From Candidatus Falkowbacteria bacterium (GTDB taxonomy: Bacteria > Patescibacteriota > Patescibacteriia > UBA11705): a stretch of 64,000 bases of DNA. Each line of letters begins with the position of its first letter. Within the stretch, counting starts at the first letter, position 1. The stretch lies in assembly GCA_003518055.1 (NCBI GenBank), contig DOZJ01000005.1:1319-65318 (forward strand), written 5' to 3'. The notes beneath the pieces are model-generated. The model made no database searches. It was not told the DNA's origin and saw only the letters and a program-made list of their open reading frames with translations. The position numbers and the translations under genes were made by a program. Shown here piece after piece: positions 4,521 through 22,400 of this stretch.

Positions 4521-4861
4521 CTTCCGTTGCCCGCATTGAATGCAGGCTATTCGTACCAGTTATCTGACGGACACCGTACCCATGGACACCTTGTCTGTCG
4601 CACCGGCCATGAAACGTTTCGATAGCCACCTCACTCCTCTCGGAAATCACCGAGAATATAAGCCTCCTTTATTTCATGAACAAATTATCATAACACACAA
4701 TTTTTTATTTGTCAATTGTATATCCCACCCCACCATCAAAACTACTATTTTAAGGCAAAAAAACCTGTTGAGCGTCTTCAACAAAATCATCGTAGCGGCC
4801 TTTTAATTTTCCTTGTTTATTCTTATCTTATATTTAATCAAAATTCCTGCTATCATAAATT

Positions 4862-5275: not shown

Positions 5276-5282
5276 AAAATAT

Positions 5283-5312
5283 AAAATCGCTGAATTCAGC
5301 GATTTTTTTATG
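5283..5312 (+). terminator. Rho-independent terminator (AAAATCGCTGAA/TTCAGCGATTTT palindrome plus T-run)
   Basis: Perfect inverted repeat followed by TTTTTTT immediately after the stop of 4862..5275. Confidence 0.7.
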
Positions 5313-5551
5313 GCCACAAATTTTCTACAAATGCTCTTAACAACTCATAAGATCTATTCATCATTTCAAAATCATCCACACGTCCCCACCAATGATTTGA
5401 ATTGTGATGAATATGACATCTACTGTAATCTTCATCTATATACCATTTTCTCAACACAAATTTTTCTGGGTTTTGATAATTTGAACAAATTTATTTATAA
5501 TCAAGACAAAAATATTACACTTAAATAAACTATTCACATATTAAGCAAAGT

Positions 5552-5590
5552 TGACAACACCCCTCTATTTGCTAAGATATAATTCGAAAA
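5552..5590 (+). promoter_or_regulatory. Sigma70-like promoter (TTGACA - 16 nt - TAAGAT/TATAAT region) upstream of the small ORF 5628..5777
   Basis: TTGACAacacccctctatttgcTAAGATATAAT read directly, about 40 nt upstream of a GGAGG RBS. Confidence 0.4.
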
Positions 5591-5627
5591 GACCTTTTGA
5601 ACCAACTCGTCACAATGGAGGTGTCAG

Positions 5628-5777
5628 ATGAATCTGGATCCTACCGGACGCAACCTAATACCCGGCTGTTATTGTTCAATCAATCCAAATAATGACCACA
5701 AAAACTGTATAAAGGCTAAAATAGATATGTACAAAAAATCACCAAAATCATCCTCTGGCCATTTCGCAAACTCATAA
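5628..5777 (+). CDS. Small Cys-containing peptide ORF (49 aa: MNLDPTGRNLIPGCYCSINPNNDHKNCIKAKIDMYKKSPKSSSGHFANS)
   Basis: GGAGG at 5617-5621 with a 6-nt spacer to the ATG at 5628. Promoter-like hexamers upstream and a stem-loop plus T-run downstream. Below the 60-aa cutoff of the ORF track. Sits next to the rSAM/SPASM and methyltransferase genes. Confidence 0.4.
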   Translation: MNLDPTGRNLIPGCYCSINPNNDHKNCIKAKIDMYKKSPKSSSGHFANS

Positions 5778-5784
5778 ATTCAAT

Positions 5785-5822
5785 TAAACGCTGGTAATAC
5801 CTAGCGTTTTTTATTTTTGAGC
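5785..5822. terminator. Bidirectional stem-loop terminator between the convergent small ORF and the methyltransferase gene
   Basis: AACGCTGGtaatacCTAGCGTT followed by TTTTTATTTTT on the plus strand; A-rich on the other side. Confidence 0.5.
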
Positions 5823-6275
5823 AGAAGCTTCTAACACCCTATGCCAATGATTATGACCTTCCTCATCATCAAAAACATCAAAAACTCTAAAAACAATGTT
5901 ACGAAACCCCTCTTTATGCAATAATTTTGACAATAAATCACCAGTAAACTTTGAAGAACTATTCAAATCAGACAAATCAAAAGTCTGAATAAAAAACCAT
6001 CCGTCTTTTTTTAAATTTTCAAACGCAGTCTTTACAAATTCAGTCTGATTTTTTATCTTATGTATCACAAAATTTGAATATACCAAATCAAAGGGTCTCT
6101 TTTTAGATAAATAAAATTTTTCTAAATTCACTCCCATTTTCAAATCAACCCCTTCGACCTCCCATCCCATTTTTTTTAAACCATTTACATCTACTAATTC
6201 CCCCGCCCCTAAATCAAGAGCCCTCTTTGGGATTGAATAATTATCAAGAACAAACATCTTTAATCTTTTATTCAT
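5811..6275 (-). CDS. Small class I SAM-dependent methyltransferase
   Basis: Motif I LDLGAGEL(VD). The ORF-track ORF 5811..6335 begins at a TTG overlapping the rSAM 3' end; the first ATG in frame is at 6275 (MNKRLKMFVLDNY...). Confidence 0.6.
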   Translation of the reverse strand: MNKRLKMFVLDNYSIPKRALDLGAGELVDVNGLKKMGWEVEGVDLKMGVNLEKFYLSKKRPFDLVYSNFVIHKIKNQTEFVKTAFENLKKDGWFFIQTFDLSDLNSSSKFTGDLLSKLLHKEGFRNIVFRVFDVFDDEEGHNHWHRVLEASAQK

Positions 6276-6283
6276 ATAAACTG

Positions 6284-6317
6284 AATTAAAATTATAAAAA
6301 ACCGTAAAATTACGGTT
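6284..6317 (-). terminator. Stem-loop (AAACCGTA-ATTT-TACGGTTT) plus U-run directly after the rSAM stop codon
   Basis: 8-bp perfect stem overlapping the stop at 6317-6319, followed in minus sense by TTTTATAATTTT. Confidence 0.5.
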
Positions 6318-7402
6318 TACTTGTTTAAGAAACAATGAGGGTCTTCAGCCAAATAATCACCATTTTGGATATGTGCTCGAGCTCGACATCCACCACACTG
6401 ATACTTCAAGCCACATGAACCGCATTTCCCAGATAAATTCATCCCCAACATCTCTTTAACAATTCTATTTTTTTTGTATTCCTCAATCATTTCATCTATA
6501 GTCATTGAAAAAGTATTCATCATAGGAATATTCAATAAAGCACATGGGGTCATGGTTCCATCAGAATTAACATTAAAAGTGATTGCTGCCGCTCCACACC
6601 CATCAAAAACCAACTCGTCCTCTCTTCCCAGATCAGAAACACCTCGTAAAATACATTTTAGGGGGTCATTAGTTGTTACATTTACATCTGGAAAAATATT
6701 CTTCAACCTATAAACTTCTTCTAAAAAATCTTTCTTTTGTTCCCAAGTCATCCACAGATCAATACGATCAATTGCTCTGCCTGCAGGATGTATCGCTGAG
6801 AAACTTACTCTTTTACATCCCAAATCGACCGCAAACCTAACCATACTTTCCATTTCATCAATCTGATTTGGTCTTATTGTTGATCTCATAGATGGAACAA
6901 TAGCGTCATCATTAGCCCCCGCAGCTAGTCTCAAAGCTTTCACCGCGGAATCAAAGGCTCCTGTACTACATCTAAATGCGTCGTGCTTTTCCTGATCCAA
7001 ATCATCAAGACTGATAGATAATACGAATCTGGAAAAAGATAATTTTTTGATCAAATTGATGTGTCTCTCTCTTAAAAAAGTTCCATTCGTGGTTAATGTA
7101 ACATACTCGCCACCATTACCTCTTACTGCTGTCAAAACATCATCAAACTCAGAATGCAACAAAGGTTCTCCTCCAGACAGTACAATCTCTTTATAATTTG
7201 GACTGAACATTCGAGCAAACTCAATTATTTTTAGAATTTGTTCTAAAGGCATATCTCGTTTTAACTGGTGAGAAGCCCTACAATGCTTACAGTTCATATT
7301 ACATCTACCAGTAATTTCCACCTGGATTTGTCCAAACTCAATTTCATAAATAGCATCTTCAGTTTCTACCTCCAACCTGGGTTTTGCACTTTTACATTCC
7401 AT
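6317..7402 (-). CDS. Radical SAM / SPASM-domain peptide-modifying-type enzyme
   Basis: CNMNCKHC (CxxxCxxC) and the GGEPLL motif. C-terminal Cys-rich SPASM region (C...GKCGSCGLKYQCGGCRARAH). Two in-frame ATGs at 7414 and 7402; the latter has a GGAGGG RBS 4-5 nt upstream. Confidence 0.85.
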   Translation of the reverse strand: MECKSAKPRLEVETEDAIYEIEFGQIQVEITGRCNMNCKHCRASHQLKRDMPLEQILKIIEFARMFSPNYKEIVLSGGEPLLHSEFDDVLTAVRGNGGEYVTLTTNGTFLRERHINLIKKLSFSRFVLSISLDDLDQEKHDAFRCSTGAFDSAVKALRLAAGANDDAIVPSMRSTIRPNQIDEMESMVRFAVDLGCKRVSFSAIHPAGRAIDRIDLWMTWEQKKDFLEEVYRLKNIFPDVNVTTNDPLKCILRGVSDLGREDELVFDGCGAAAITFNVNSDGTMTPCALLNIPMMNTFSMTIDEMIEEYKKNRIVKEMLGMNLSGKCGSCGLKYQCGGCRARAHIQNGDYLAEDPHCFLNK

Positions 7403-7437
7403 TGGTCCCTCCATTTTAAAAGGGGAAAATCACTGAT

Positions 7438-7461
7438 TCTCCCCGTCTGATTGTGACCACG
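7438..7461 (-). promoter_or_regulatory. Two short hairpins between the precursor-like peptide ORF and the rSAM gene (possible attenuator or processing structure)
   Basis: In mRNA sense, TTGTGAC-tgacagacgtg-GTCACAA overlaps the peptide stop codon. It is followed by GGGGAG-aatcagtga-TTCCCC and then TTTTAAAA. Confidence 0.35.
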
Positions 7462-7465
7462 TCTG

Positions 7466-7531
7466 TCAGTCACAAATGCTGCAGCTTCCCTTGCCGATTC
7501 TGACCTTGATACGCTTCTTCTTGGGAGACAT
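7466..7531 (-). CDS. 21-aa Cys-containing peptide (MSPKKKRIKVRIGKGSCSICD); candidate RiPP precursor for the adjacent rSAM/SPASM enzyme
   Basis: AAGGAGG 7 nt upstream of the ATG at 7531; stop TGA at 7466-7468. Same strand and 64 nt upstream of the rSAM start. Confidence 0.45.
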   Translation of the reverse strand: MSPKKKRIKVRIGKGSCSICD

Positions 7532-7836
7532 CTTACATCCTCCTTACCTGCCTAATTCAATAGTTACAATTTTGATTGTGGCGCTAATATAGCACCTTCG
7601 TCAAGCTGTAACTTTGAATTTAGGACTTTGGGCTGAATTTAAAGAGCATCTAATTAAAGGATATCAGAACAATCGTATCTGTCAAGCGCTCGTTAAGGTA
7701 TGCCCCATATTCTGTATTGGGCTTGTTGCTTTGTTTATTCAAATATAACAATTTAAGACAAATTTGACAAAATAACATACTCTATATAACATACTCTACA
7801 ACAATCAGTTCCTTGAAAAACGAAGGATGGGCACCC

Positions 7837-8934
7837 ATGAATATTGTAACCACCTTGCCGATCACACCGAGACGCGACCCTCCACTTGGGTTATTCCTCC
7901 AGCCTTTTATTTGCGACCTGATCAGTCATTCAAATTTATCATTACAATATATTCAAAGCTTCAATCTAATGGGACGAAAAACCAACATGGATACTGAAAC
8001 CTTTCTGGCAAAAATGAAATATATGGGGATTATCCCGCCTCAAATTTGGTTTGACACCGCTTCAGACAATATTGAAATACTATCAGCCTTGATCAACCAT
8101 TTTATTGCCGAAGATAAAATTATCATAGAAAAAACAGCTGTGGTGAGCTGTTCGTGTGGCCGGGTGGAAACACTGGCTACACCAGACAACATTAAAGCGA
8201 TCAAACAATCAAAATCAAAAGGAAAATTAATTTTTGAACAACACAATGAATTATATTGCAAAATTTGCTGCTCATTGCTTAAAATCAGACTGGATTATGT
8301 CCTGCTGTTTCACACCGGTTTTTATAAACCCGATTATGAAATTAAAATTTCTCCCTCAAATTTTAAAGCCGAATTTAATCAGTTATGGTGCTACTTCAAT
8401 AATAAAAAAATTCTTATTTCACGATCATCGCTGCCGCACCCTTTAATCCCGACCATTGCCGGAGAATTTCGAATCGACGTTGACTTCCTCTGGCAAAATA
8501 TTATTAATATTTTTCATCTCCAGCACAATACCGTAAACATTATTGTCACCAGCCACAAATTAATGCAAAAAATGGTTTTTGCTTTAATTTTCGCCAGAGA
8601 ATTTGGCACGCCGCCGCCTTCAAATGTTATTCTGCTTCCGTATATTCATTTAACCGAGCACCACTCGGAAGTCTATGACTACATGAAACTCGCCCCCTGT
8701 CTTTTACGCGCCTTTCTTCTGTTGGGCTGGAGTCGACAGAAAAAAATATCACTTGAATTCAAACAGCTGAGCCGGTTGAAAATTCCCGACCCGGAATCAC
8801 CGACCAGGAGAAATTCTTCTCTCGGCAACATACCCCGAAATTTCAATCCGTCAGCGCTTTTCAAGCTTTGCGCCAAACACTCAGATAAATACTCCGATGA
8901 AGAATTGCAGATATTATCGCTCCTAAAACCTTAG
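7837..8934 (+). CDS. Hypothetical protein (about 365 aa)
   Basis: The ORF-track ORF 7813..8934 starts at TTG; the ATG at 7837 has an AAGGA RBS. Stem-loop terminator overlaps the stop. Confidence 0.55.
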   Translation: MNIVTTLPITPRRDPPLGLFLQPFICDLISHSNLSLQYIQSFNLMGRKTNMDTETFLAKMKYMGIIPPQIWFDTASDNIEILSALINHFIAEDKIIIEKTAVVSCSCGRVETLATPDNIKAIKQSKSKGKLIFEQHNELYCKICCSLLKIRLDYVLLFHTGFYKPDYEIKISPSNFKAEFNQLWCYFNNKKILISRSSLPHPLIPTIAGEFRIDVDFLWQNIINIFHLQHNTVNIIVTSHKLMQKMVFALIFAREFGTPPPSNVILLPYIHLTEHHSEVYDYMKLAPCLLRAFLLLGWSRQKKISLEFKQLSRLKIPDPESPTRRNSSLGNIPRNFNPSALFKLCAKHSDKYSDEELQILSLLKP

Positions 8935-8940
8935 GAGTTT
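8911..8940 (+). terminator. Rho-independent terminator (CTCCTAA-aacc-TTAGGAG plus TTTTTT)
   Basis: Read directly; overlaps the stop of the 7837..8934 gene. Confidence 0.55.
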
Positions 8941-8988
8941 TTTAATTGACAAATATACCAATTATTCATATTATAAAATCAAACGACA

Positions 8989-10773
8989 TTGATTATGACA
9001 ACCAATCATTCAACAATTTTCAAGCGCATTGGCTCCCAAACACAAAACAAAAACATTCTGCTTTATTGTCCCGGCCTGCCTGAATCAAAAAAAGTTTTAA
9101 ACAAATTAAGGATATTTTGTTCAGAGGCTGATTTGGAGCTGCAGATTATGTGCTACCCCGGAACACCCGGAAACAAAGGTCAATTTTTGCAATTCAATCC
9201 GGCCAAAACAATAGATAATTATATTTGCCAAATAAAACACAAAAAAAATCGCGCTGTTTTTGTCCTTGGCGACAGTTTTGGCGCCTCAGTTGCTCTCAAC
9301 ACATCATTGGCTGACAAAATCATCGCCATTTCTCCGGTTATAAACTGGAAATCTCTCTATCAAAAAAATTCCCCGGAAGAAAATTACGCCACTTTTCTCG
9401 CCTATTTAATCACTGTCGGCTACAATATAAATCACAAAAACTGGACAAAACTCAAATCCGACAATCTATTAAACAGCATAAATCAAACCACCCCGACGCT
9501 GATAATGGCCAGCAAAAACGACCCGACTGTGAAAATCGAGCCTCTGTTATCGCTCAAACAACAAAATCACGATACGCGTCTATGCGCTGAAAAGAAACAT
9601 CTATCATTCAGGACATTAAATCAAAAACAAATTATCGCATTAAAAAAATTTTTGTTAACTGATAAAATTCAAAAAAGGACATCTAAAAATAATAAAATTA
9701 TACATCAACTTATCGCCGGACACCACAAAGACTCCATCATTTCATTTGGGTCCCAAGCCGCCGACAACTCGGTGCCGGAATCAGACCTCGATTTATTGAT
9801 CATATCAGATAAACCCGTTATCCAAAATCAACAGAACAGAACAATAGAATTAAAATACTGTAACCAAGATATATTTAAAAAATATTCCCGAGAAACCCTT
9901 AGAGGGGCGGTTAAATTGATCACCTCAAATATTATCCGAAGTAATAACGAAGATACTGTATCAATTTCAAGTCTGAAATCCTACCTGCTAAAACGCCACA
10001 AACCAACCATTCTATTGGCTTTATTGCTGGAACAATATCGCTTCGGCCAAAAAAAATATCCTCAGGGCAGTCCGATTGAGGCCAAGTTCGCCCCGGGTGG
10101 ACGCAGACATCTGGGATTCATGACCGTCGCCAACAACATTATCAACAATCGACCATGTTCAAATTTCTGGGAATCGCTTCATGACCTGCTGACGAAAAAT
10201 ATTATCAACTATCAAGACATATCGAACATAAACATTTTTTTCTATTATCTGCAGACCGCGCCTCGAAGAAGAAACAAAATTATTATAAAAAAACACATAA
10301 CCGCGAACACAAAAATTGTGGCCAAATTTTTTCATAGTTATTTCGCGCCCCGAATAATGCAAGATTTTAGCATAAAAATCAAAATTACAGAAAAACGAAT
10401 ATCAGCGGATACTACACGTCATGAAATTAAAGATATGTTTGACGCCTTATTCACCAGATCAATCAAACACCAAGTAAATCTCTGGCGGCAATATCAAAAT
10501 AACACCAACCATCTCGTGAAGCATATTATTTTTTATTATCTGGCCTGCAATCAACATTTATCCCTGCCAATAGCAAAAAATATTATCAATCTATATATCG
10601 ACTCCCCAATTGATTCAAACATTATTCGTAATATTGTCCAAAACAGCAGCCTCAATTGCCAACCAGAAATAATTGCATCAATAAAACAATCACCTGACAT
10701 CAAGATCCAAAAATATCTTAGAGAATTTAAACGCAATCGTTATATTTTTTCACAAAAAATAATCAGAGGTTAA
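8989..10773 (+). CDS. Fusion protein: N-terminal alpha/beta-hydrolase (GDSFG nucleophile elbow), a minimal Pol-beta-type nucleotidyltransferase domain, and a helical C-terminal region
   Basis: VFVLGDSFGASVA (GxSxG) in the N-terminal domain. In the middle domain ISFGSQAADNSVPESDLDLLIISD matches hG[GS]-x10-DhDh. Very AT-rich, N/K/I-rich composition. Confidence 0.6.
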   Translation: MIMTTNHSTIFKRIGSQTQNKNILLYCPGLPESKKVLNKLRIFCSEADLELQIMCYPGTPGNKGQFLQFNPAKTIDNYICQIKHKKNRAVFVLGDSFGASVALNTSLADKIIAISPVINWKSLYQKNSPEENYATFLAYLITVGYNINHKNWTKLKSDNLLNSINQTTPTLIMASKNDPTVKIEPLLSLKQQNHDTRLCAEKKHLSFRTLNQKQIIALKKFLLTDKIQKRTSKNNKIIHQLIAGHHKDSIISFGSQAADNSVPESDLDLLIISDKPVIQNQQNRTIELKYCNQDIFKKYSRETLRGAVKLITSNIIRSNNEDTVSISSLKSYLLKRHKPTILLALLLEQYRFGQKKYPQGSPIEAKFAPGGRRHLGFMTVANNIINNRPCSNFWESLHDLLTKNIINYQDISNINIFFYYLQTAPRRRNKIIIKKHITANTKIVAKFFHSYFAPRIMQDFSIKIKITEKRISADTTRHEIKDMFDALFTRSIKHQVNLWRQYQNNTNHLVKHIIFYYLACNQHLSLPIAKNIINLYIDSPIDSNIIRNIVQNSSLNCQPEIIASIKQSPDIKIQKYLREFKRNRYIFSQKIIRG

Positions 10774-10900
10774 AGTGATCCGATCGTAATTTCAAATAAT
10801 ATTTTGATCTTGCCTTGTTGAACATGTGCTTCTCTCATACCCCACCCATTCCTTGTGAAATAATAATTCAATCTAATCATACCAAATAAAGTTCGTCAAT

Positions 10901-11482
10901 ATGTCAAAAATAAATTTCTACTACAATCGCGCTGATGATGTTAAAAATTGGACACGACACCACGAACAACACATCCCGACCTTGTCAAAAAGTCTCCAAT
11001 TCCTGCTAGAACAAAATATAGTGACGTTACAAAAAACCTGGAATTTTTTGGGAAGTAACATAATCCAAGCCCTTGAAAAAACTCTTGAAAAGCCCAACAC
11101 CACCACAAAATATACGTCCGCGCTCACAACCTACCACTCATGCCCCTACGACCCTGCCCACAACTGGTTCATGGTTTCTATCAAGGCCAGCCTGCCATCC
11201 CAAATCACCAATATCGCGCACGAATTACTGCATCTCCAATTTATCCATCACTACGGAGATTATTGCCACAAAATGAAAATAAATGAAAAACAATTTCATA
11301 TATTAAAGGAATCGCTCACCGTAATATTAAACACCTCTCGCTTTCAAAAAATTATCCCCGCGCTTGACAAAGGTTATTCGGAACATCAAAAAATAAGACA
11401 AAAAGTTTTTGGGGCATACAAACCAACAATGAAATTCCAAAAATTTCTCGATCATACAATCAAAATTATAAAAACCAATTAG
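10901..11482 (+). CDS. Hypothetical protein with an HExxH motif (IAHELLHLQFIHH); possible metal-dependent hydrolase
   Basis: Complete ORF; the HELLH motif was read directly. Terminator-like hairpin follows. Confidence 0.5.
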   Translation: MSKINFYYNRADDVKNWTRHHEQHIPTLSKSLQFLLEQNIVTLQKTWNFLGSNIIQALEKTLEKPNTTTKYTSALTTYHSCPYDPAHNWFMVSIKASLPSQITNIAHELLHLQFIHHYGDYCHKMKINEKQFHILKESLTVILNTSRFQKIIPALDKGYSEHQKIRQKVFGAYKPTMKFQKFLDHTIKIIKTN

Positions 11483-11487
11483 AATAA

Positions 11488-11516
11488 ACAAACAGGGACA
11501 ATCAGCCCCTGTTTTT
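11488..11516 (+). terminator. Stem-loop (ACAGGG...CCCTGT) plus T-run
   Basis: acagggacaatcagcccctgttttttatt read directly after the 10901..11482 stop. Confidence 0.5.
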
Positions 11517-11860
11517 TATTACCTCACTTAACATTTCAATTACACCGGCAAGATTGGCCATGACCTCTCTGTTGGTAAATCTGATGACCCGCAAGCCGAG
11601 ACTTTCCAAATAATTCGTCCATTCCTGATCGTAAAATATATTTTCCGGCAGAAAATGATGCCCGCCGTCGACTTCGATCACCAGCTTCGCGGCCGGGCAA
11701 TAGAAATCAACGATGTAACACCCAAAACCTTTTGTCGATAAAATTGCAACTTGTTGATTTGTTTTCTTCTAATTCTCAACCACAATTTTTTCTCCGGCAA
11801 AGTCATCCCTTTCTGAAGTTCACGCGCGAACGGTTTGAGTTTCTGATTATAATAATTCAT
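11502..11860 (-). pseudogene. DUF559 (Vsr-like endonuclease-domain) gene disrupted by a frameshift; paralog of 12948..13295
   Basis: The N-terminal 60 aa (MNYYNQKLKPFARELQKGMTLPEKKLWLRIRRKQINKLQFYRQKVLG) align to the intact paralog. The homologous C-terminus (YIVDFYCPAAKLVIEVDGGHHFLPEN...LGLRVIRFTNREV) continues in a different frame from about 11700 down to a TGA at 11502. Confidence 0.55.
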
Positions 11861-12210
11861 GATAGTTAATGTCTAATCCCCCTTGGGTTCCCCCTTGAAA
11901 CATCAAGGGGGATGTGTGCTTCATCGCAAAGCCAAAACAACCCCGCCGCGAAGCTACCAACCTTCCCCCTTAATTATTAAGGGGGACTGAGGGGGATTTC
12001 TTCTAGCCGCCAATCCCCATTTTCATCAAATTTTACCCTATTTTCCCCTTAATATTATACAAGATTGTTATCCACAGTCCCTCTTGCTTTCTTATATCCA
12101 CCGACTATTGCTTGACTTTTTTCCCTTTATATGATAAGCTGTAGGTGTAAAGGTAAGGCGTGAATCAGCACACACACACCCGCCAACGGCGGGAGAAACC
12201 GGAGGACCTC

Positions 12211-12852
12211 ATGACCACGCGCCACTCGTTCCTTTCCATTTTCGTTACTCTCGCTCTCCTGCTCTTCGCCTTCGGCTGTGAAGCCGGCGGCGGCGACACC
12301 AACCCGAACCCGGACATCCAGTCCGGCAGCGACACCGGCAATCCGCCGGACGACACCGGCTCTCCGCCCGACGACTCCGGCAACAAGCCCGACTCGCCGG
12401 ACCCGACCGACGTGCCGGATCCGCCGACCTGCGAGGGCGATCTCGTCGAGCTCGAACGCGATGGCGTGACCGAGTGCGTCTCGGCCGACTTCGCCGAGGC
12501 GGTCGAGGCTCTCGATGGTCTCGAGCTGACGCAGACTCAGCCGAACACCAACCCGGAAACCATCACGTTGGAATTCTATCATGTCACTGACTTTGACGAG
12601 GCTGTAATCCAGTGTGAGGGCTTTTCCCGATTCTTCATCCAGGGACTGGCTGGTGCAGTAGATGTGGCTTGTATAGACGAAAGCTTGGCATTGTCCATGT
12701 GTGAGGTGGACACTACCTTCTGTTTCGGCGGGACTCTCACCGGCCAAATCACCTACAGCAAGTCAGCCCAACCAGAAGTGGTGCTGCAAACCGACTTCTG
12801 TGGTGATCTCGGATGCGACAATTTCGTCTACGAATCTGATGTCAACGAGTAG
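12211..12852 (+). CDS. Lipoprotein with a low-complexity Pro/Asp/Gly linker and a Cys-rich C-terminal domain; its 5' half is about 65% GC
   Basis: GGAGG 5 nt upstream of the ATG at 12211. MTTRHSFLSIFVTLALLLFAFGC is a lipobox-type signal peptide. GC content far above neighbouring genes. The antisense ORFs 12127..12747 and 12165..12386 are artefacts of the GC-rich composition. Confidence 0.7.
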   Translation: MTTRHSFLSIFVTLALLLFAFGCEAGGGDTNPNPDIQSGSDTGNPPDDTGSPPDDSGNKPDSPDPTDVPDPPTCEGDLVELERDGVTECVSADFAEAVEALDGLELTQTQPNTNPETITLEFYHVTDFDEAVIQCEGFSRFFIQGLAGAVDVACIDESLALSMCEVDTTFCFGGTLTGQITYSKSAQPEVVLQTDFCGDLGCDNFVYESDVNE

Positions 12853-12862
12853 CGAACTTTTT

Positions 12863-12896
12863 CTTCTGCCGCGATCAAACCATCGCGGTTTTTTTG
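12863..12896 (+). terminator. Rho-independent terminator (CCGCGAT-caaacc-ATCGCGG plus TTTTTTT)
   Basis: Read directly after the lipoprotein stop. Confidence 0.65.
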
Positions 12897-12947
12897 TCGT
12901 GCGAATAATCTAAATATTCAAAAAAGCAGCATAGAGCCGCTTTTTTG

Positions 12948-13295
12948 TTATAAATATTTCATTATTTCCAATACAACCCCTTCGATATTAGTCAATACAT
13001 CACGATTGGTAAACCTTATTACCCGCAGCCCCAGTGTTTCCAAATAGGCTGTGCGCTCCTCGTCATAAAACTGATTCTCCGGTTCAAAGTGCTGGCTGCC
13101 GTCAACTTCGATTACTAAACTAGCCGCGGGACAATAAAAATCTACGATATAGTTACCTAAAATTTTTTGGCGATAAAAGTGGAAACCATTCAGCTGTTTG
13201 CGTCTAATTTTTGACCACAACAGTCTCTCGGTACCGGTCATTTCACGCCGCAGTTCCCGCGCGCGATATTTTAACTCTATATTATATTCTTTCAT
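12948..13295 (-). CDS. DUF559 endonuclease-domain protein (Vsr/very-short-patch-repair-like fold)
   Basis: 115-aa ORF with the typical DUF559 pattern (ARELRREMTGTERLLWSKIRRKQLNGFHFYRQKILGNYIVDFYCP...VIEVDGSQH). Confidence 0.75.
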   Translation of the reverse strand: MKEYNIELKYRARELRREMTGTERLLWSKIRRKQLNGFHFYRQKILGNYIVDFYCPAASLVIEVDGSQHFEPENQFYDEERTAYLETLGLRVIRFTNRDVLTNIEGVVLEIMKYL

Positions 13296-13420
13296 ATGCG
13301 CGGGGCAAATCCCCCTATATCCCCCTTTGAAAAAGGGGGAATGAACGAGGGATCACACCCAACGTCACTAAGTTCCCAATCTTCCCTCCTTAGAATAAGG
13401 AGGGACCGAGGGAGGATTTC

Positions 13421-16400
13421 TCACGGCTTCAACAATATCCTCCCATCAAAATATGTCCACGGATCAATGCCAGATACGCTATTTGTAGAACATGCATCAA
13501 AACCCCTTTCACCAACGTCATAACACCCCGCAAACCCATTTCCAAAACCTCGACAACCATCAACGGTCGATGACGGATCAGCATTACACCACCCCCAATT
13601 ATCTTTGACTTGGACGCGCGGGACAAACTGACAGGCCTGCTCGGCGGCGTTCCAGCAGTCGCTGTCGCGCTCACCGGCACAGAGATTGGCCGTCGCGTTG
13701 CCGCCGCCTTTCAAGTTCGGATCAGTCGGACCTTCACACGTCAACACAGTTTCATATTTGAAGAACTCCTGCTCAACGCAAGCGGTCGGGGAATCGCCAA
13801 ATCGCAGCTGAACCGAGTTTGGGTCGGGTATGGCGTTGCAGGTCAAATTGCCGTAGCAGTCATTGGCGCTCAAACAAGCATAGCCCTCAATTTTTTCACC
13901 CGCCAGCGTCTGACAGAGCCCCAACGCGATTGGCGACTCTTTCAATTGACACAGCGGCTTATGATTTTTGTAATGCCCCTCCGGAGCCGGCAGAGCCCCC
14001 TCGCCATCTCTCCAATCCACCGTCACTTTGCGAATCGGCATCTGATCATCATCAGCCCATGCGAAAAACTGCATCAAGGTTGTTGACTCGCCGCCAAAAA
14101 GCACGAGGTCATCAGACGCCCGGCCATTGATCGATACGGTCTTCGGTACAGCCAAATAAATCGGTTTGCCAGTCACCGGATCGCTTTCGATTTTTTCCGG
14201 CGCAGGCAGCACCACTCCGGCCACCACCGGCGGGAAACTCACCAAATCAGCTGATCTGTCGCGCTCATATCTGCTTTCTTTATCATAAATATAATTATCA
14301 TCCACCCGCCAGCCGGAGTAAACCGCCGCGAATATATCTTCCAGTTTGGAATAGGTTATGGGACTGGTTGCGCTTGTGGTTGAATACCCATAAAAACCAT
14401 CTTGAACATGCGAACACTGGCCATTCGGACAACCCCAAATCGTACCGCCATTTACTTCCCCGCCCATATCCGAGAACGGACTGCCTCCCTGACGATTGGA
14501 TTCACCCGCTGCCACTAAAATCGGCGCGTGTGATTCCACATCCTCCGCAGAGCCAAAAGCGCTTCCCATCGGAGAATTTACCGAGTTAAACACAATACTG
14601 AATGCCCCATGTGGAGCTGTAAGTAGATTTAATTTTTCTCCGGTCCAATCAGGGTTCAAAGAATAATGATACAACCGATTCGTCCTCGCTTTGTTATCCA
14701 AATTCCCGGCGACATTTTCAGCCACCGACACCACCTCGGCGCAATATTCGTTCAACAAGAAATGTACTCTTAATGTCTGATAACCATAATTAGAACTCTC
14801 ATCACAGAGCCCCACCCAAACCCCTTTGTAGATACCATTCTCATCGAACACCACTCTAATACCAAAATAATTGTCATCTGTCCCTTGGTTGCAATATCCA
14901 CCCAAAGTCCTGCCGACCGGAGCATTTCCGGCGCCGGAAACGCACCAGCCATTCAAATCCGCATCTTCACCATCAACCTGACAACCCCAACCGCTATTAA
15001 AGTTACACACTGTTTGTTCGTTGTCTTCTGTACAACTTCTATTTGAACAATAATATTTATTCCCAACCGGGACACAGACACCTCCACCCTGCCCCTGACA
15101 AACGTGGTCCCCGTCATCGGTTGTGACACATTCTTTTTCCGTAAACCCTCCCGGATTCAAATTTGCCGGAGCGACATAAAATCCATGTGTCGGATGATAT
15201 GACATACTTCCGGTTGTCTGCGAGGTGGTTAATTGAGTTCCTGTAAGAATATTATAAGTTCCTCCAGCATATGGGAAGTATCCCTTGCCGGCAAACATAT
15301 AATTTTTTTCACTCACGCCTTTTTCAACCTCAGTTCCCGGCCCCCAGTTAAAGCTGGTGCTCGGAGTCTGCTCCCAGACCGCTTGCCAATATGTCCATCC
15401 GCTGACGCCATAATCAGCATCGAGTGGCTGTCCGCTGGCCAAACATTTAGTTCCGTTGCAAGTGGCCAAACCTTGCCATTGTGACGACAGCTGCCTAGGA
15501 ATAATTAAAGATTCCGGAACAAAAGAACTGATCGTGTCATACAACGCTGGTGGAACAAACTTATTTTTATTTTCAAAACCATCACCGGGATCGCTCTCAC
15601 CATTCCAATCCGCTACCGACTCACACCAATCACCTGCCTGACCACCGGTACATTCAATCGCAATCCCCGCGACCTGACTCTCATGTATTACCGGGATATC
15701 AGCTGCCGGCTCTCTGAAGTACTCCATATACTCATCATACCCGGAATACCCGGTTGTAAAAGTCATCTCATCAGACGTCACCATGTATGTAACAGTATTA
15801 GCATCCGGCTCGGCCACGCCTAAATTTCCAAGACCGGCCGCATTTATGCAGTACAACCGCCCGACATCTTCGCCACCTTGAGTAAATAATTCATAGCCGG
15901 CATCTTTAAATTGATTATACATATCCTGCAGACCATTCATCGTATCGAGAGGATACCAAGTCAAACAGGCTTTTTCCGATTGCGAGCCGTTTATCGAGAC
16001 CGTATTATCGAATTCCATACAATATCCCTGCCAGCCTTTGTATTGCGTTTGGTCAACATCTTTTCTCATGCACATTCCCATATCCTGACTACCATCAACA
16101 ACACAATCCAGCGAGCTGCAAAAAGTCGCAGTTTTAATGTTAACGCCATCCGGCCCGGCCGCCGAACATTCACACTCCTTACTCTGATCATCCTGACAAA
16201 AACCATCCAGATAGCTTGACACGGAAATATCAAAATATTTTTCCACCGCCCGATTTCCATAGGTGACTTTTTTGTAATTACACGCACAGTCTTCGTCGTC
16301 ATTATAAAGAGTTTGTTTTACCCCGTTTTTATCATAATAGAAAGACGTACACGCCGTCGCGTTTTCAAACACTCCCTTAGCCGCATCAGCCGTTTTGGTT

Positions 16401-19400
16401 AGGCTCGGAAATGGAGAATTAACCTGAGGATAAGCGCGGCAATCAGCTGTCGGTGAAACCCAGTCATCATCCTCAAAATTATTCACCAACGGCTCAACGC
16501 ACTCACCGCCGGCGCAGAGGTCACCATCGTCACCACAATCCGTGTCCACGACACAGTCAAAAGGCACCCCTCCCGCTTCCGGTCGATATTTATGCACCAA
16601 CCGATAATCCTTGTCATCGGATTCTCTAGCCACATCAAACGAATCATAATACTGAATCGGATACTTGTCCGCCACCGAATAACCGCTGTAATCAAAAGCA
16701 TTCCAGCCTTTATCCCGAGACTGATATCCTGACCGCATGATATTATTATTAGCCAACAACGACTCGCTCGTTCCGCTGACAAAGTTGCTGCACTCGCCGG
16801 CCGTCTCACCCTCACCGACCTGGTCACAGAGCCCTAAATCCTGACAAACAAACACCTCTCGATTTTGTACCGGATCAAACGTGTACTGACCGCTCTTACA
16901 GTCATACCACTCAGCGCACTCCCGATCTCGATCCACCTTGATTATTCGATTGGTGTTGTTGAACAACGGACTTTTCTTGAGCGTATAACAAGCGACAAAT
17001 TCTTCATCAGCGCAACCATTAGCTCGAGCTGCTTCGTGCTCCGCGGTTAATGGATACCCGTTGGCAATCGTCTTTTCCGTCGCCCAAGCCGCCAGCGCGC
17101 ACATAAACTGCTCATTAAATGACTTACTCGAGACAAAACATTCTTGATTCAAATATGCCTGACATTCCGGATTGACTAAACCGTGGCAGACCGTCGCGTC
17201 ATCATAAAAGAGATCGAGTAATGCCTGAACATTCGGCAGGCCAGCCTGCGGATTCTTCAATTTACCGCCATCATCATTACTGGCTTTATACGTCATCCCG
17301 GCACTGGAACTGACCGAAATATTACCTGATTCATCTTTAATCGATGTATCAAGGAACAACAAACAGCCCTCTTTCTCGCTGACACCGGAGCAGCCTGATA
17401 ATTTTTCATCATTGATATAATAATACGCCTCGCCCACCGCTGATCCGCCTGACACATCCATCGGATCAATAAACGCGGTGCAGCCGCTGGCTTTCGGTTT
17501 GCACTCACCCACCCAGCCGGTAACTTGTTTTATAATTCCATCAGCGTCTCGATAAGGGATAGAATAATCAGGATCGTTTGAATGGATCAAATGTTTAACG
17601 CCGTCATTATAATAATCTTTCGTCGCTCGAATACCGCCAAAAAACATCCCTTCTCTTTCAATTGTCACTCCACATGGTTGATCGGTTCCTGTCTTATACC
17701 AGCCTTCAATTTTTGATCCGTCAGGGTTGCCAACCACCTTGTACTCACAAGTCCGATCGCCGGGATCTTTGAAATAATACGTCTGGCCGCCCTCATCCTC
17801 ATAAGATTGACATCGGCTGTCACCACCGCGGCAGAGGAATTTATCCAGCTGATTCGGATCAATCACATAATAAGCAGTATCCCATTCTGGATCGCCGTTC
17901 ACGCTGGCCACATTATAATTTTGATCCAACTTTGGCCGGCCAAGCATCATACAGCCAAGCGTATTTTCCTGACACGTCTTTTTTTCATCAAACACTACAA
18001 ACATCACATTATCCGCCGGTATCGTATATTGATCTCCATTTTTATAACACTTTCCCTCTTGATAAACATGCCCCAAAGCTTGACAGTATCCCTTGGTCGC
18101 CACATCATATTGGCACTGTTTTAACATCGTATCGTCAACATAATGAAATGGAAGATCCAAGTTATCCAATCCTGACCAAGTCCCCAAATCAATGCCAAAC
18201 GTATTGGCCAAGGCCACCAAGCGGACCCTTCCTAAAAATGTTAAATTTGTTTTATCAAAAGTATTAAGAAAATCTTGAAAATTAGTAGACGAAGTTAAAT
18301 TCCCCGATAAATCATAAAACCGAATAGCCAAATCATCAGCGCACGAGTCATATTCAGTTTGAGTGATACCGCTTGACGCCGCACATACCCCCAACGGACA
18401 TAATGCCGGCGCTAAATTCTGTTGACATTGATCGTCCGGGTCCAAAATTTCAGCCCCCACCGCCTCAGCGCACACATCAATTTCCGTCGCGTTAAACGCC
18501 AGCTCAAAAGGCGTTGTCGAATTTTGGGTGTCAATCACCGCTTCACAACCAACCGCCTCAAACCGACATAAACTACGAAATCCTTTCAAGTACTCAAGTG
18601 TTTCAGTACCGGTGGCGTATTCTCGACAACCAATTTGCGCCTGCGGCAGATATTGACCGGCCATCGTCTGGTCGCAAACTGCCGGCGTGCTCCAAGAATT
18701 TTTAATTAAATATTTGACATCATTCAGTCGCTTAATATTAATCGAATCAAAATATACCGTTGCCCCAGAGGTTCGAATAAACAAAGACTGAACTACATTT
18801 TCCAAACGCATTAAATCAGAAGTATAATGATAAAACTCAACCCCTCCCGCCGCCGCTTGATTGATATTCACATTTGATGTTGAATGCGTAAAACCTTCTT
18901 GACCGAATATTAATTCAACCGAGGCTGTTGCTTGATCTGCTTTGGCCCAAAAATCAATAATAAATTCTTCGTCGGCCGCCAAACTATTTGGCAAATCCAA
19001 AGTTACTCCATTATTTGCACCCTGATTAACTTGCAATGATTTCCCACCATTTATCATCGAGGCGGTGGAAAAAGTCACAGCACCATTAGCCGTCCAATTA
19101 TACGTTTCACCATCAAACGAATCGGAGAATATCACCTCTTGGTCATTGGCATTGTCACCACGGAATTCACGGCAGCCAGACGCATCATCGGAACATTTTC
19201 GACTCAAATCCGGCTCCACCATAAACACACACTCGCCGGCTACAACCGCGCCGCCCCGATCAGTGCACTGCGTGGCGGCCGTAGCGCCCTCATATTTAAT
19301 AGTCTTACGGTATGGAAAACAATTATCAGAGCACAAAACCAAATTATCCATTATTTCATAGAATACCGAACCGCCCTCACTGATAAATTCACGGCATTCA

Positions 19401-22400
19401 GGGGACGTCACAGGATTATAATTAGCCGCATTGCAAACCGTTTGATTCTGAGCCATATTAGTCACCTTTGGTGATCCTCCATTCATCTGGAACCGATAAA
19501 CTTGCAATTGATATCCGGATGTATCGTCACCAATCCAAGTAACATATGAACCGCAACTGCTGTCGTTAGCCGGATCAGCGGTTTTGTAGCACATTCGAAT
19601 TGATTTGAAAAATTCTTCCGATTCGCCGCCTCGATCCAGTTCATCCAAATTCGTAAACCCCTCACACCCGGCATCATTGGCTGAACATGACTCAGCTGAA
19701 TCAGCAATAAAATACACCGGATATTCCGCCTCAGCCAGACTGCTCTCCGCCTGCGAAAAAACTTCGTAACCGGCGCATTGAGCCGGACAAACGTCATCAT
19801 AACTGGCCACTCCGGTCACCGCCGGGCCTCCGGCCGTTGGAATATATTCTTGACAACCGACCTCCTCAGCCGAACATTGCGTGGCAAACTTGCCGCAAGC
19901 CGCATTGTCATTTGTCGTATTTATATCAACCGTTTTTATCGGCGTGTACCATTTCGTAAATTGAGTCGCTATCGCCTCGCCGGAAACGCCACTCTCATCA
20001 AAAGAATTTTCAGCGTCATAACACGCGTAATGATCGGGCGCCACCTTGAGATAATCATATGCCACTCGGCCATAATCATAATAATACGGAGCGTCATTCG
20101 GCCCTTCTGATTCGGCAATTAAAATATTATCAACCACTGCTTGTCCGGTCGCTCTAATTTTTACCCCCAGATATCCGACACCGGGCGCCACTCGAACAAT
20201 GACCAGAGTCTCTTTTCGCGTGCCGCTGACATTCTGCTCCTGATAATAAATATAGGAGTCATTCAACATATCCAAACCCGACGTGGTAGCGGTTTTCGTC
20301 ACCTCCACCTCACCACCCACGGACTCGGCGGCAAAATCAAACTTTTTAAATGTCGGCACCACCGCCACATTATCTGTCGCTCTCGTGGTGATCGAATAGG
20401 TGAAATATCTAACATATTTTTTGGGCGCGATCATTATACTGCGGCTGAGCGCCAATTCACCCCCACTCATACGAGCTCCCGGACCGTCAATGCCATCACC
20501 AATCGCCACCTCATGAACCGCTTGACCATTATTCCAGCCGGCAAAAATATCAGCTGTGCCGTCATCCGGATTCCCTGTATAGTATGAAAAACCGCCATTT
20601 GCCACCAAATTGGCTCGATATGAATTATCCATGTGAATAACTCGAGTGCAGCCCTCATCTCCGGCCGCGCAGGTTTCCGACTCAATATTTTGGTTCAAAT
20701 AAACCATTGCTGATCCGGGCTTATAATAACTACTGGGATATTCTTTGCTAAAATCCCGATCCGCGCCGTCAGCCGATACCAGCCAGCTGCTATATCCCAA
20801 ACACCCGACATCATCAGCCGAGCAGGAAGCGTAATCCACCGTATTCAATAAATAATTAAACCGTTTGCCGTCATCTCTCGTCACCGTCGAACAAGAATCA
20901 TAATAACCGGGGCATTGCTCTCCCCCGAATTGCCAGACATTCTTTTCCGCCGCGCAATAAGCATAGTGATCGCAGGAGCCGTCCTCATTTTCATCCACAC
21001 AACTTTTGAGATCTGCGCAGTATTCCTCTCGATCCTCCGCGCCACTCGTGATCAAAAGCGGCCCGTAACCGATCGCATCGCATCTTGTCTTGGGATATTT
21101 GAGAACCCAATTCGGATCAACCAAACCGGTATAATCAAAGTCAGCACTCACACAAGACGGATCTGTGCTATTAAAACAATCCATGAGAAAATTCAAAGTT
21201 ACGCGATCATCACCATTAGGATTTCTCTCGCCGACAATTTTAGCCGCCAACTCCCAGCCAATCGGAATAATCCGCGCTTTGCGTAATTTTATCAAGTTGG
21301 AATAACAATAGGCGTTCTCATAACAATCCGGATTTAAATTCCGATTATCAATGTGACTGATAAATGGCAGATTACCCTTCAAAAACCCCTCGTCAACCGC
21401 CTCACGCACCGACATTGACCGGCCATAGCCGGCGCTCCTGACCGCGTCGGCAAAATCATCAGACATCACGCAATGATTAATTTGTCTCTGAATACTCGAA
21501 TCACAAATTGTAAACTCACTCAATAAATCCACTTCTTTTTCCGAAACTGAAAATCTGACTTCCTGTATTTTGGAAATCGCCCGTTCCGCTCCGGCCACAT
21601 AATCATAAACACCTTGAGCCGGATTGTATGAACTGGACCTTGAGACATACCCTTCGCTGATTCTTTTAAACAATGCCTCCACAAACCGTTGTGACACGAA
21701 TGAATTCAACAAAGTTGTACCAATCGCTTCTGGAATTGATTCAATCGTTGCCAGCGCCTGCGTAATTTCTTCCGACTGCGCCTTCTCGGCTCGTTTTACA
21801 TTTTCTTCCACCACCGTTTTTGTGGTCCCCGGTGGATTCTGAATCGTGTTGCCCAAGACATCAGTTTTCGGCTTAAGCGATCCTTCGCCTTCTCGCCGCT
21901 GTTCTTTTTGCGCCTCAACCTGCTCCTGATGCTCGGTTTCTAGCAAATCATAAGTCCAAATATATGTTCCAACCTGACTCTGCTGCGGTTCAAATCCCTT
22001 GACCACCTGATCAATCGTCAGAAACGATGCTACTTCCGGATTATCAACATATCGATCCTGCAGCTCATCGGCAAAACCTTCCCAATTATCTTTGACCTGA
22101 TTCCAAGAACAGCGCTGATTTTGCGCCCGGCGGTCAAACGGATCCCTCATTTCTCCGGCTTCAATCGACCGGATAATTCGCAATTTCAATTCAACATTTG
22201 GTTCGCAGATATCAAAATATTCCGACCACGGTCCGGACATACTGAGGTCAGCCAAAACATCGGTCAAAACCGCCTCCTCCACTTTATCAACATAAGCGGT
22301 CCAAGTATCAGTTTCCCACACCGGCGTTTGACCAAAGCTGCCGGTTTCCAAATATTCGATTGACCGCTGAGATAAATCCTGAGTTAGACTGATGGCTAAA

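Follow-up and report, generated by a model that had tools for sequence, protein, structure and literature searches.

The DNA considered here is a 64-kb stretch (hereafter the window) of a 305-kb groundwater metagenome contig. Between 11.5 and 13.4 kb it carries a predicted lipoprotein gene bracketed by two minus-strand modules, each made up of a small DUF559 gene and a leader with two motifs of the BoxC/PIT type, i.e. a pyrimidine arm, a purine arm and a mirrored third purine run on one strand (together a unit). The notable result is an oriented association of DUF559 genes with such triplex-motif units that spans many phyla. For the window itself, it is probable that the interval represents slightly more than one copy of a recombining cassette of lipoprotein gene, DUF559 gene and triplex-motif doublet, with the lipoprotein gene as its resident component and the DUF559 module as the added, recombinogenic one. 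This explanation builds on direct observations of the anatomy of the locus, the mirror symmetry and covariation of the units, their association with DUF559 genes and its geometry, the mosaicism of the paralogues, the conservation of G+C content at third codon positions (GC3) and the corresponding site in a related locus, L105.

Could the arrangement be an artefact of assembly? The same arrangement was assembled independently in 7 contigs from several samples, and an assembly chimera is therefore unlikely. NCBI files both the lipoprotein (HCC23455.1) and the intact DUF559 protein (HCC23456.1) under Candidatus Falkowbacteria bacterium, so that an earlier sequence-only reading of this DNA was right to assume an organism of the candidate phyla radiation (CPR).

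Probable cassette structure and rearrangement

With a period of about 1446 bp, the cassette would comprise three parts: a lineage-specific gene for a predicted exported lipoprotein, its 5' half intrinsically rich in C and G at third codon positions; a convergent gene for a small DUF559 endonuclease (YcjD-type, Vsr-fold); and, directly upstream of the latter, a divergent triplex-motif doublet of the BoxC/PIT/TM type. The two DUF559 modules of the window (11480-12030 and 12925-13440) align with 78% column identity over ~500 nt, across both the open reading frame (ORF) and the leader, in keeping with their previous description as diverged direct repeats, and their DUF559 genes are the sole ones in the window. 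The right gene (12948-13295, minus strand) is intact and encodes 115 aa that match PF04480 over model positions 3-107 of 109 (E 5.7e-38, 129.6 bits against a gathering score of 20.6) and PDB 3HRL (E 8.6e-23), as expected for a YcjD-type, Vsr-fold endonuclease-like protein. Its match to the YcjD equivalog model of NCBIfam, PRK09767 (E 1.6e-23), reaches 83 bits and stays under the cut-off of 218, and judged by these scores the protein is a YcjD homologue, not the equivalog. PADLOC returned weak matches only (E 1e-7 to 1e-5), to DpdF and to a model for type II methyl-directed restriction enzymes. Reading of the sequence also reveals a D-F...E-V-D-G..H stretch, which may hold putative nuclease active-site residues. 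The left gene (11502-11860, minus strand) is a pseudogene, of which two pieces, 11678-11860 and 11502-11681, each match PF04480 and appear in tblastn as two overlapping high-scoring pairs in different frames. As had been noticed from the sequence, it is frameshifted; the break amounts to a single-base deletion between 11721 and 11720 relative to an intact, ~90%-identical orthologue of 119 aa in L107, and it is identical in all independent assemblies.

Related loci, which carry labels such as L016, L017, L105 and L107 (L102 being the Escherichia coli K-12 ycjD region), hold the same components in tandem. In L016 a P0002-like lipoprotein gene is followed by DUF559, leader, a second lipoprotein gene (P0001), DUF559 and leader again; in L017 the leader and the block upstream of the lipoprotein gene are repeated after its DUF559 gene; and in L107 lipoprotein genes P0004 and P0001 enclose, in this order, a gene of 125 aa, a radical-SAM gene, an intact orthologue of the left pseudogene of the window and a leader. 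Along the lipoprotein region, the identity between paralogues forms a patchwork. From 12069 to ~12520, i.e. over the upstream block and the 5' half of the gene, the window is 85-100% identical to L017 and L021, the corresponding value for the 3' half being 45-75%, and synonymous codon identity among paralogues is much higher in the first ~110 codons. The intragenic shift that had been taken to hint at a chimeric gene was thus borne out in the form of a 5' half homogenised among paralogues as opposed to a divergent 3' half. The DUF559 genes, too, are chimeric between loci, in that the closest relative switches mid-gene.

It is probable that these patterns reflect two types of homologous exchange. 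One between DUF559 modules and one between the conserved 5' blocks of the lipoprotein paralogues would both duplicate, delete and shuffle cassettes; the outcome would be tandem arrays in relatives and, in the window, one full cassette with a decaying extra DUF559 gene. Of the repeat-mediated insertion proposed earlier, the part that stands is the importance of the repeats for rearrangement, evident from the tandem arrays and the chimeric DUF559 genes; the part that does not is the lipoprotein gene as the insert, the variable element being the DUF559 module.

Which of the two components is the resident one? On the 43-kb contig of L105, with housekeeping neighbours, a lipoprotein gene is followed by a terminator and by the convergent end of a homologue of a 3096-aa protein encoded in the window, recognisable by its C-terminus (...PKVQVKDNWGWCN...GCYD...DAC), and neither a DUF559 gene nor triplex units lie between the lipoprotein gene and the giant-protein gene. 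Given this synteny without DUF559 or triplex units, the lipoprotein gene is, as far as gene order can tell, a syntenic resident, and the module of DUF559 gene plus doublet (12948-13420) is an insertion or a deletion. The 3096-aa ORF (13421-22711) is one of two giant minus-strand ORFs in the window, the other (46875-54902) encoding 2675 aa; the gene table of the source contig lists no Pfam match for the 3096-aa ORF. Its Cys-rich C-terminus (...VQVKDNWGWCN...GCYD...DAC) is conserved, and in L105 it is found in convergent orientation to the lipoprotein homologue, which suggests that the lipoprotein and giant-protein genes form a conserved gene pair.

An alternative would be that the lipoprotein and DUF559 genes make up one mobile cassette or composite element, the lipoprotein gene being cargo that moves between genomes together with DUF559 and the units. 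A lipoprotein gene followed by a reverse-strand DUF559 gene is indeed found in the window, in L016 (twice), in L017-L020 and beside the remote homologue in L103, and the tandem arrays of relatives as well as the short contigs of these loci, which break at repeats, would suit such an element. We nonetheless consider it unlikely, given that L105 has the same synteny without DUF559, that in L014 and L107 other genes lie between the lipoprotein and DUF559 genes, that DUF559 has unrelated neighbours in the 80 loci surveyed below, and that the repeats on either side are in direct orientation, with a pseudogene in one of them and neither a transposase nor a target-site duplication present; family searches gave no integrase or transposase. 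In the remote case, L103 (870-1187), lipoprotein homologue P0006 is followed by triplex-like hairpins and a reverse-strand DUF559 gene (tblastn E 1e-17), so that the adjacency recurs at large divergence.

Triplex-motif units and DUF559 genes

Perfect hairpins with a pyrimidine and a purine arm occur exactly four times in the 64 kb, every one inside the two leaders, and all four are accompanied by a perfect mirrored third purine run, compared with 0.15 hairpins and 0 third runs in Markov-simulated sequences of the same length. Each unit consists of an all-pyrimidine 5' arm (Y1), an all-purine 3' arm (R2), a linker of 3-5 nt and a second purine run (R3); the stems measure 9-11 nt, the first loop 1-4 nt and the second 3-5 nt. 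In the left leader, unit A' (11875-11912, minus strand) reads TCCCCCTTGA (Y1), loop TGTT, TCAAGGGGGA (R2), linker ACCCA and AGGGGGATT (R3), and unit B' (11964-11999, plus strand; inverted repeat I15) reads TCCCCCTTAAT, loop T, ATTAAGGGGGA, linker CTG and AGGGGGATTT. In the right leader, unit A (13308-13340, minus strand) is composed of TCCCCCTTT, loop TTC, AAAGGGGGA, linker TAT and again AGGGGGATT, and unit B (13383-13418, plus strand) of TCCCTCCTTA, loop GAA, TAAGGAGGGA, linker CCG and AGGGAGGATT. The R3 run of the proximal unit (AGGGGGATT) ends 14 nt (A') or 12 nt (A) before the DUF559 ATG. Each leader is therefore a divergent, intergenic doublet (11875-11999 and 13308-13418) with its distal unit facing away from DUF559: B' diverges from A' and is oriented towards the lipoprotein gene, and B ends 2 nt ahead of the stop codon of the 3096-aa gene (13421-13423).

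The sequence-only reading had described two hairpins per leader, and the number is correct; plain hairpins they are not, each being one portion of a three-part unit. The shared 'GAGGGGGATTTCTTC / GAGGGAGGATTTCTC block' reported with them also exists and corresponds to the mirrored third purine run. In unit B, for instance, arm GGAGGG is followed by GGGAGG, its mirror image and neither a repeat nor a complement. As single-stranded DNA the leaders fold with z-scores of -3.7 to -5.8 (Watson-Crick folding being what was computed), and in such a fold the complement of B' pairs with R3 of A'. The three-block order, the mirrored third block and the intergenic inverted doublets found in the window are those that define class II (purine-motif) intrastrand triplexes, and by these features the hairpin leaders are BoxC/PIT-type triplex-motif doublets. 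They depart from the consensus of the E. coli version, TMECO (CCCTCNCCC N3-6 GGGNGAGGG N3 GGGNGAGGG): with cores of CCCCC/GGGGG and CCCTCC/GGAGGG they belong to the same class, not to TMECO in the strict sense. Neither the window nor 36 related loci gave an Rfam match that reached the gathering score; under loose thresholds unit B bears a weak resemblance to Whalefall-1 (18.8 bits against a gathering score of 37), to which the units were not assigned.

Are these doublets peculiar to one CPR locus? The answer comes from a survey of 80 DUF559 loci, one genome per species, from more than 15 phyla and other groups (Desulfobacterota, Chloroflexota, Zixibacteria, WOR-3, Nitrospirota, Nitrospinota, Bacteroidota, Ignavibacteriota, Planctomycetota, Spirochaetota, Gamma- and Alphaproteobacteria, Firmicutes, Cyanobacteria, Melainabacteria, Calditrichota, several CPR groups and others). 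In 77 of the 80, the DUF559 gene has a unit, third run included, no more than 300 nt away; an upstream unit with its third run towards the gene is present in 59, an inverted downstream unit pointing at the gene in 62, and both in 47. Hairpin density per locus reaches ~6/kb in the 100 nt before the start codon and 4.7/kb in the 250 nt past the stop codon and is 0.07-0.16 elsewhere; of 255 hairpins, 212 fall no more than 500 nt from a DUF559 gene. Units adjoin the ORF closely, with median distances of 17 nt on the ATG side and 9 nt on the stop side, and many are 0-3 nt away; the 43 orphan hairpins of these loci include several doublets.

Mirror symmetry is also seen in hairpins that were not preselected for a third run. 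Of 121 asymmetric purine cores collected in this way, 102 have beside them a perfect mirror (T allowed for A) and 38 a perfect direct copy, the latter mostly representing the next unit of a tandem array; the mirror outscores the direct copy in 72 cases and underscores it in 7. More than 20 distinct cores covary with the mirrored run, for example GAGGGG/GGGGAG, GGAGGGG/GGGGTGG, GGGGAGAGG/GGTGAGGGG and GAAGGGG/GGGGTAG. The modal linker length is 3 nt (107 units), and long linkers form small hairpins with many compensatory variants, e.g. TGCCCGAAGGGC, TGTCCGAAGGAC and TGGCAGACGAAGTCTGCC. Purine-motif triads are G*G-C, A*A-T and T*A-T. A pyrimidine arm with its purine partner and an antiparallel, mirrored run of G, A and T is, in terms of sequence, exactly what a purine-motif intramolecular triplex requires; a repeated protein site or an alternative hairpin is disfavoured, because either would need a direct repeat and not a mirror.

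DUF559 proteins flanked by the same class of unit are more alike (identity 0.552 vs 0.489; none of 2000 label permutations reaches this difference), and the nearest-neighbour protein shares the unit class in 53 of 77 loci. The GGAGGGG class occurs across many phyla, which suggests that the gene is inherited or transferred together with its flanks. The surrounding genes are of all kinds, unrelated from locus to locus and with no tie to GC-rich cargo. The supposed link of DUF559 to compositionally foreign cargo was accordingly not found in these phyla. In a second architecture, CCCCTCC, loop, GGAGGGG and T are followed by a small covarying hairpin with a GAAG-type loop and by GGGGTGG; it occurs in the flanks of L071, L072, L076, L078, L080, L082, L084, L088, L092-L095 and L097 and resembles, below the gathering score, the two-stem layout of Whalefall-1 (RF01762, listed as a small RNA), which may itself be a narrow variant of this DNA repeat class. 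Directly upstream of the DUF559 genes of L034 (2740-3000), L026, L078 and L082, triplex units are arrayed in tandem, up to 7 or more of them at a period of ~38-48 nt; the leader of L016 has additional inserted units compared with that of the window.

E. coli K-12 has 23 TMECO units and a single DUF559 gene, ycjD, which lies in region L102 (NC_000913.3, 1351204-1351760), and TMECO no. 9 in the numbering of Holder et al. 2015 (PMC4666352) lies 168 nt downstream of the gene, with a duplicated fragment of the ycjD 3' end in between. By simple arithmetic, the chance that one of 23 motifs in 4.6 Mb falls within 300 nt of one given gene is ~0.003. In other E. coli phylogroups the ycjD site holds the eefRABCD operon (PMC12817139). 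No report linking DUF559 or ycjD to these repeats was found in the searchable literature, though subscription journals may hold one.

Might the leaders instead be RNA elements, i.e. structured 5' untranslated regions that control translation or transcription of DUF559, the G-run serving as a Shine-Dalgarno (SD) sequence or alternative pairing partner? The position of the proximal unit, 12-14 nt before the ATG here and at a median of 17 nt elsewhere, would be compatible with such a role, as would the sequence conservation between the two copies, the covariation of the linker hairpins, which indicates a selected single-stranded fold, and the weak architectural likeness to Whalefall-1. However, units also lie inverted just past the stop codon, form tandem arrays and occur as orphans, either singly or in doublets, and none reaches an Rfam gathering score. 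In the window, 15-17 nt separate the last G of R3 from the ATG, more than an SD sequence allows (the distance elsewhere varies from 3 to 144 nt), and the third run cannot compete for the pyrimidine arm as an attenuator would, because it is mirrored rather than directly repeated. Moreover, Holder et al. 2015 (PMC4666352) report that purine-motif triplexes do not form in RNA and that PIT elements are without promoter or terminator activity. An RNA leader thus seems quite unlikely, and the DNA-level, triplex-motif reading is retained. A promoter or terminator role of the units in the window was likewise rejected, the sole promoter-like matches placing the -10 box inside the ORF.

Codon composition of the lipoprotein gene

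The lipoprotein gene (12211-12852, plus strand; 213 aa), delimited by its ORF, GC3 profile and the alignment of homologues, has its own SD sequence and terminator, as previously stated; the start is probably the ATG at 12211, five bases after GGAGG (12201-12205), rather than the GTG at 12160. The SD sequence ends an AT-rich conserved block (12046-12210) that is 85-97% identical to L016, L017 and L021 and in which a promoter scan gave no consensus promoter. Behind the gene, the terminator scan marked an intrinsic-terminator-like element (12868-12897; hairpin 12868-12889 plus T-run) that is present also behind the L016 paralogues. All homologues have a hydrophobic N-terminus followed by an invariant Cys (LLLFAFG|C; the residues at -3 to -1, A-F-G, are non-canonical), remote members showing IAAC, LVAC or LMGC at the putative lipobox. 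A 21-nt in-frame tandem repeat in three copies (12330-12392, repeat D2) encodes DTGNPPD/DTGSPPD/DSGNKPD; its copy number varies among paralogues, that of L017 being short by one unit. The family is small and environmental: only 4 close homologues (61-76% identity, one from a second Falkowbacteria genome) were found in 5.8 billion proteins and 13 profile-level relatives among 1.8 billion representatives. Pfam, NCBIfam and PADLOC gave no match for the lipoprotein, and its AlphaFold2 model (mean predicted local distance difference test score, pLDDT, 43.7) is unusable.

The composition of the gene is strikingly different from its surroundings. GC content is 0.63-0.71 over 12200-12600, and GC3 amounts to 0.77-0.93 in the first ~110 codons and to 0.47-0.70 thereafter, the sliding profile confirming the GC-rich 5' part, strong GC3 bias and 3' drop noticed before. 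For the first ~115 codons (12211 to ~12555) the GC3 is 0.85-0.90, compared with a window mean of 0.45. Among 1534 60-codon segments from all genes of the window, the seven with the highest GC3 all belong to the lipoprotein gene; the other genes have a mean of 0.449 (sd 0.096, maximum 0.77). C makes up 0.80 of the third bases in two-fold codons ending in a pyrimidine, compared with ~0.20 in host genes, and at four-fold sites C and A account for 0.54 and 0.00, against 0.19 and 0.15 in the host. The same gradient is kept in all four close homologues, in backgrounds of 36-47% GC (36% in the second Falkowbacteria genome); four remote members have a gene GC3 of 0.56-0.78, with N-terminal parts at 0.8-0.97, in flanks of 33-44% GC; and the L105 gene, with no DUF559 beside it, has a GC3 of 0.76 on a 33% GC background. 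L106, a remote member with ~150 nt of flank at 59% GC, is an ambiguous exception, and no homologue in a clearly high-GC context was found among the contigs examined. An exact scan of metagenome contigs with the most conserved GC-rich 35-mer returned 3 contigs, all from the same lipoprotein family.

Recent transfer of the gene, or of its 5' half, from a high-GC donor such as an actinobacterial host, with insertion at the DUF559 repeats and GC3 as unameliorated donor composition, had been proposed from the sequence and would account for the codon usage so unlike that of the host, the abrupt shift inside the gene, the direct repeats on both sides and the 59% GC of the short L106 flanks. The same GC3 profile is nevertheless found in homologues at 61-76% identity and in remote members from genomes of 33-47% GC, and at such protein identity synonymous sites should have equilibrated to the host. 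Of the 4 close and 13 profile-level relatives, none whose contig was read had a clearly high-GC context, the 35-mer scan did not lead outside the family, the DUF559 genes of the same cassette are host-like in composition, and L105 keeps the giant-protein synteny without DUF559. Nor does a genomic island from such a donor agree with the presence of the gene, at the same GC3, in relatives, with the L105 synteny and with the lack of an integrase or transposase. The sequence-only reading had itself named two observations that would speak against acquisition, one concerning similar GC-rich genes recurring in the lineage and the other DUF559 paralogues scattered without compositionally foreign DNA; the horizontal-transfer reading fails because both were made. 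Recent transfer is thus improbable, and the GC3-rich pattern is, on the evidence of the homologues, a conserved family trait; an ancient transfer may lie at the origin of the family. The wider message is one of caution, since a strong 'foreign' codon signature can be a stable family trait, for calls of horizontal transfer based on composition. Least probable of all, and in our view very unlikely, is a local origin of the GC3-rich 5' half through GC-biased gene conversion in a recombination hot spot or T:G to C:G repair bias of the Vsr-like DUF559 protein: the region coincides with the stretch homogenised among paralogues (12216 to ~12520), the locus is recombinogenic and Vsr-type enzymes restore C:G at T:G mismatches, but the upstream block (12069-12210), homogenised to the same degree, is rich in AT, the DUF559 genes show no GC-richness despite their mosaicism and the L105 gene is GC3-rich without an adjacent DUF559.

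Two other candidate causes of the bias were rejected. Structured mRNA is not indicated by a fold z-score of +0.45, and as regards translational selection, two housekeeping genes (HtrA-like protease, NrdD) use host-typical T-ending codons. An antisense ORF (12127-12747) lies in the codon-aligned frame, in which stops correspond to sense TTA, CTA and TCA, and its length is not conserved in L016; in light of its frame, it is a by-product of GC3 and was discarded as a gene.

Beside the locus lies a low-GC island (0.29-0.39) at 4800-11500, which contains a radical-SAM gene (6317-7414, minus strand), a methyltransferase gene (5811-6335, minus strand), a gene for a 594-aa nucleotidyltransferase-domain protein (8989-10773, plus strand) and genes for proteins of 373 and 193 aa without a family match. 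A radical-SAM gene adjoins the lipoprotein/DUF559 array in L014 and L107 too. A second low-GC block (0.32-0.35; 23828-27647) encodes proteins of 697 aa (PPDK_N and PEP-utilizer domains) and 578 aa (rhodanese and TSP3 repeats), and precomputed gene calls of the source contig place at 1-3490 (minus strand) a large gene that resembles toxin genes, its domains being SpvB, TcdB_toxin_midN, RHS-repeat and PT-TG.

Implications and known systems

In E. coli, BoxC/PIT/TM repeats have been on record since the 1990s, and many bacteria have them in abundance; we know of no protein partner, origin or spreading mechanism that has been found for them. Could DUF559 be the missing partner? If the motifs fold as triplex DNA in vivo, DUF559 might act on them, either as a cognate nuclease, in a mode like that of REP (repetitive extragenic palindromic) elements and their RAYT (REP-associated tyrosine transposase) partners, or as a homing-type gene residing inside the motif doublet, and this activity might drive the rearrangements. 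We tentatively put forward the broader proposal, possible though short of probable, that YcjD-type DUF559 proteins are the cognate nucleases of BoxC/PIT repeats; the arrangement 'unit, DUF559 ORF, inverted unit' would then be the autonomous mobile or recombinogenic form, and its non-autonomous derivatives would be the orphan repeats seen in E. coli, cyanobacteria, CPR bacteria and many other phyla. Were this true, the nuclease would recognise purine-motif triplex DNA, a structure-specific target not known for any mobile element. In any case, the association provides a testable partner candidate for an old class of orphan repeats, in a family that includes E. coli ycjD and is thus open to easy genetics. 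A functional association would bring in a nuclease able to read a non-B DNA structure. It would also account for one source of local rearrangement in genomes, the shuffling of surface-lipoprotein cassettes of CPR bacteria being one instance.

Several observations weigh against the recombining-cassette explanation and this extension of it. At the locus, no target-site duplication, cleavage site or recombinase was identified, and the two DUF559 copies, sharing 57-72% amino-acid identity, are old duplicates with no sign of recent transposition. The pairing of lipoprotein and DUF559 genes is conserved in five loci, including the remote L103, and a possible functional link between them is left unaccounted for, as is the cause of the GC3 bias. 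The window has no triplex units outside the two leaders, so that dispersal in this genome is not shown. Its DUF559 genes are atypical of the general geometry in carrying units upstream only, as a divergent doublet, the usual downstream inverted unit being replaced by a plain terminator hairpin. One such hairpin, with T-runs on both sides (11487-11517; inverted repeat I18, terminator-scan match 11514-11490 on the minus strand), sits between the plus-strand 193-aa gene and the left DUF559 and is kept 3' of the orthologous DUF559 in L107. The other, with A/T runs on both sides (12919-12947; inverted repeat I16), directly follows the stop of the right DUF559 and has a conserved counterpart in L016 at 375-400. 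Phylogeny is a confounder where proteins group by unit class. Finally, as summarised in PMC4666352, PIT elements had no effect in the in vivo assays of Hoyne, Maher and colleagues, and in vivo dimethyl sulphate (DMS) footprinting gave no clear protection.

The closest known system is the E. coli repeat itself, TMECO, earlier called BoxC and corresponding to the PIT elements of Hoyne and Maher. According to Holder et al. 2015 (PMC4666352), a TMECO unit consists of a C-rich stem, N3-6, a G-rich stem, N3 (TTA in type A, CCG in type B) and a mirrored G-rich stem, and the class is defined by the succession of a pyrimidine, a purine and a further purine block on a single strand, in which stems span 6-15 nt and loops 1-6 nt. 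The paper further describes a stable triplex in vitro, 23 copies in E. coli K-12 that are always intergenic and frequently form inverted doublets of types A and B, and genomic instability at the sites, which mark loci rearranged between strains; no functional class emerged among neighbouring genes, and mobility functions were 'never found' (PMC4666352). The window units share the order of pyrimidine arm, short loop, purine arm, 3-nt second loop and mirrored purine run on one strand, the intergenic position, the inverted doublets of two unit types and the setting in rearranged loci, and linkers TAT and CCG come close to types A and B. They differ in their cores (CCCCC/GGGGG and CCCTCC/GGAGGG vs CCCTCNCCC) and in their host, a CPR bacterium. 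The published motif is, moreover, without an associated gene, whereas here and in 77 of 80 loci the units flank DUF559.

On the protein side, E. coli Vsr, Caulobacter VsrA (a DUF559 protein discussed in PMC12907096), E. coli YcjD and PDB 3HRL belong to the same fold family, PF04480, and as 'Vsr-like' endonucleases they are likewise small stand-alone proteins with no linked methyltransferase gene. Unlike them, the window locus offers no evident T:G mismatch context or cytosine methyltransferase, and the conserved partner of DUF559 is a DNA repeat, not a methylase. Free-standing Vsr-like 'EDxHD' homing endonuclease genes, e.g. I-Bth0305I, also exist, in which a small nuclease ORF nearly fills the gap between the halves of a symmetric site; DUF559 loci have a comparable trait in the inverted units that abut start and stop codons, but they lack an intron or intein context, and their site is a dispersed repeat instead of a unique gene target.

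For the lipoprotein gene, the nearest parallel is offered by the vsp/vlp arrays of Mycoplasma, which encode variable surface lipoproteins with a conserved 5' and a variable 3' region. Both systems have tandem paralogues with a near-identical upstream region, signal peptide and linker and divergent mature C-terminal parts, as well as in-frame tandem repeats of variable copy number; by contrast, no invertase or promoter-switch element was seen here, and the paralogues are separated by DUF559/triplex modules.

REP elements and RAYTs, reportedly the subject of work by Nunvar et al. 2010 and Bertels & Rainey 2011, resemble the present case in that the repeat is short, structured and intergenic and long stood as an orphan, a small gene present once lies between inverted repeats, and orphan singlets and doublets occur elsewhere in the genome. 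They differ in that DUF559 has a PD-(D/E)XK (Vsr-like) fold and RAYTs are HUH tyrosine transposases, and in that the units are three-part and triplex-type, not simple palindromes; action on the repeats is here an inferred one. The resemblance would thus be one of mechanism only and not of family membership. Even so, linking DUF559 to triplex repeats would be the same step that connected REP elements to RAYTs.

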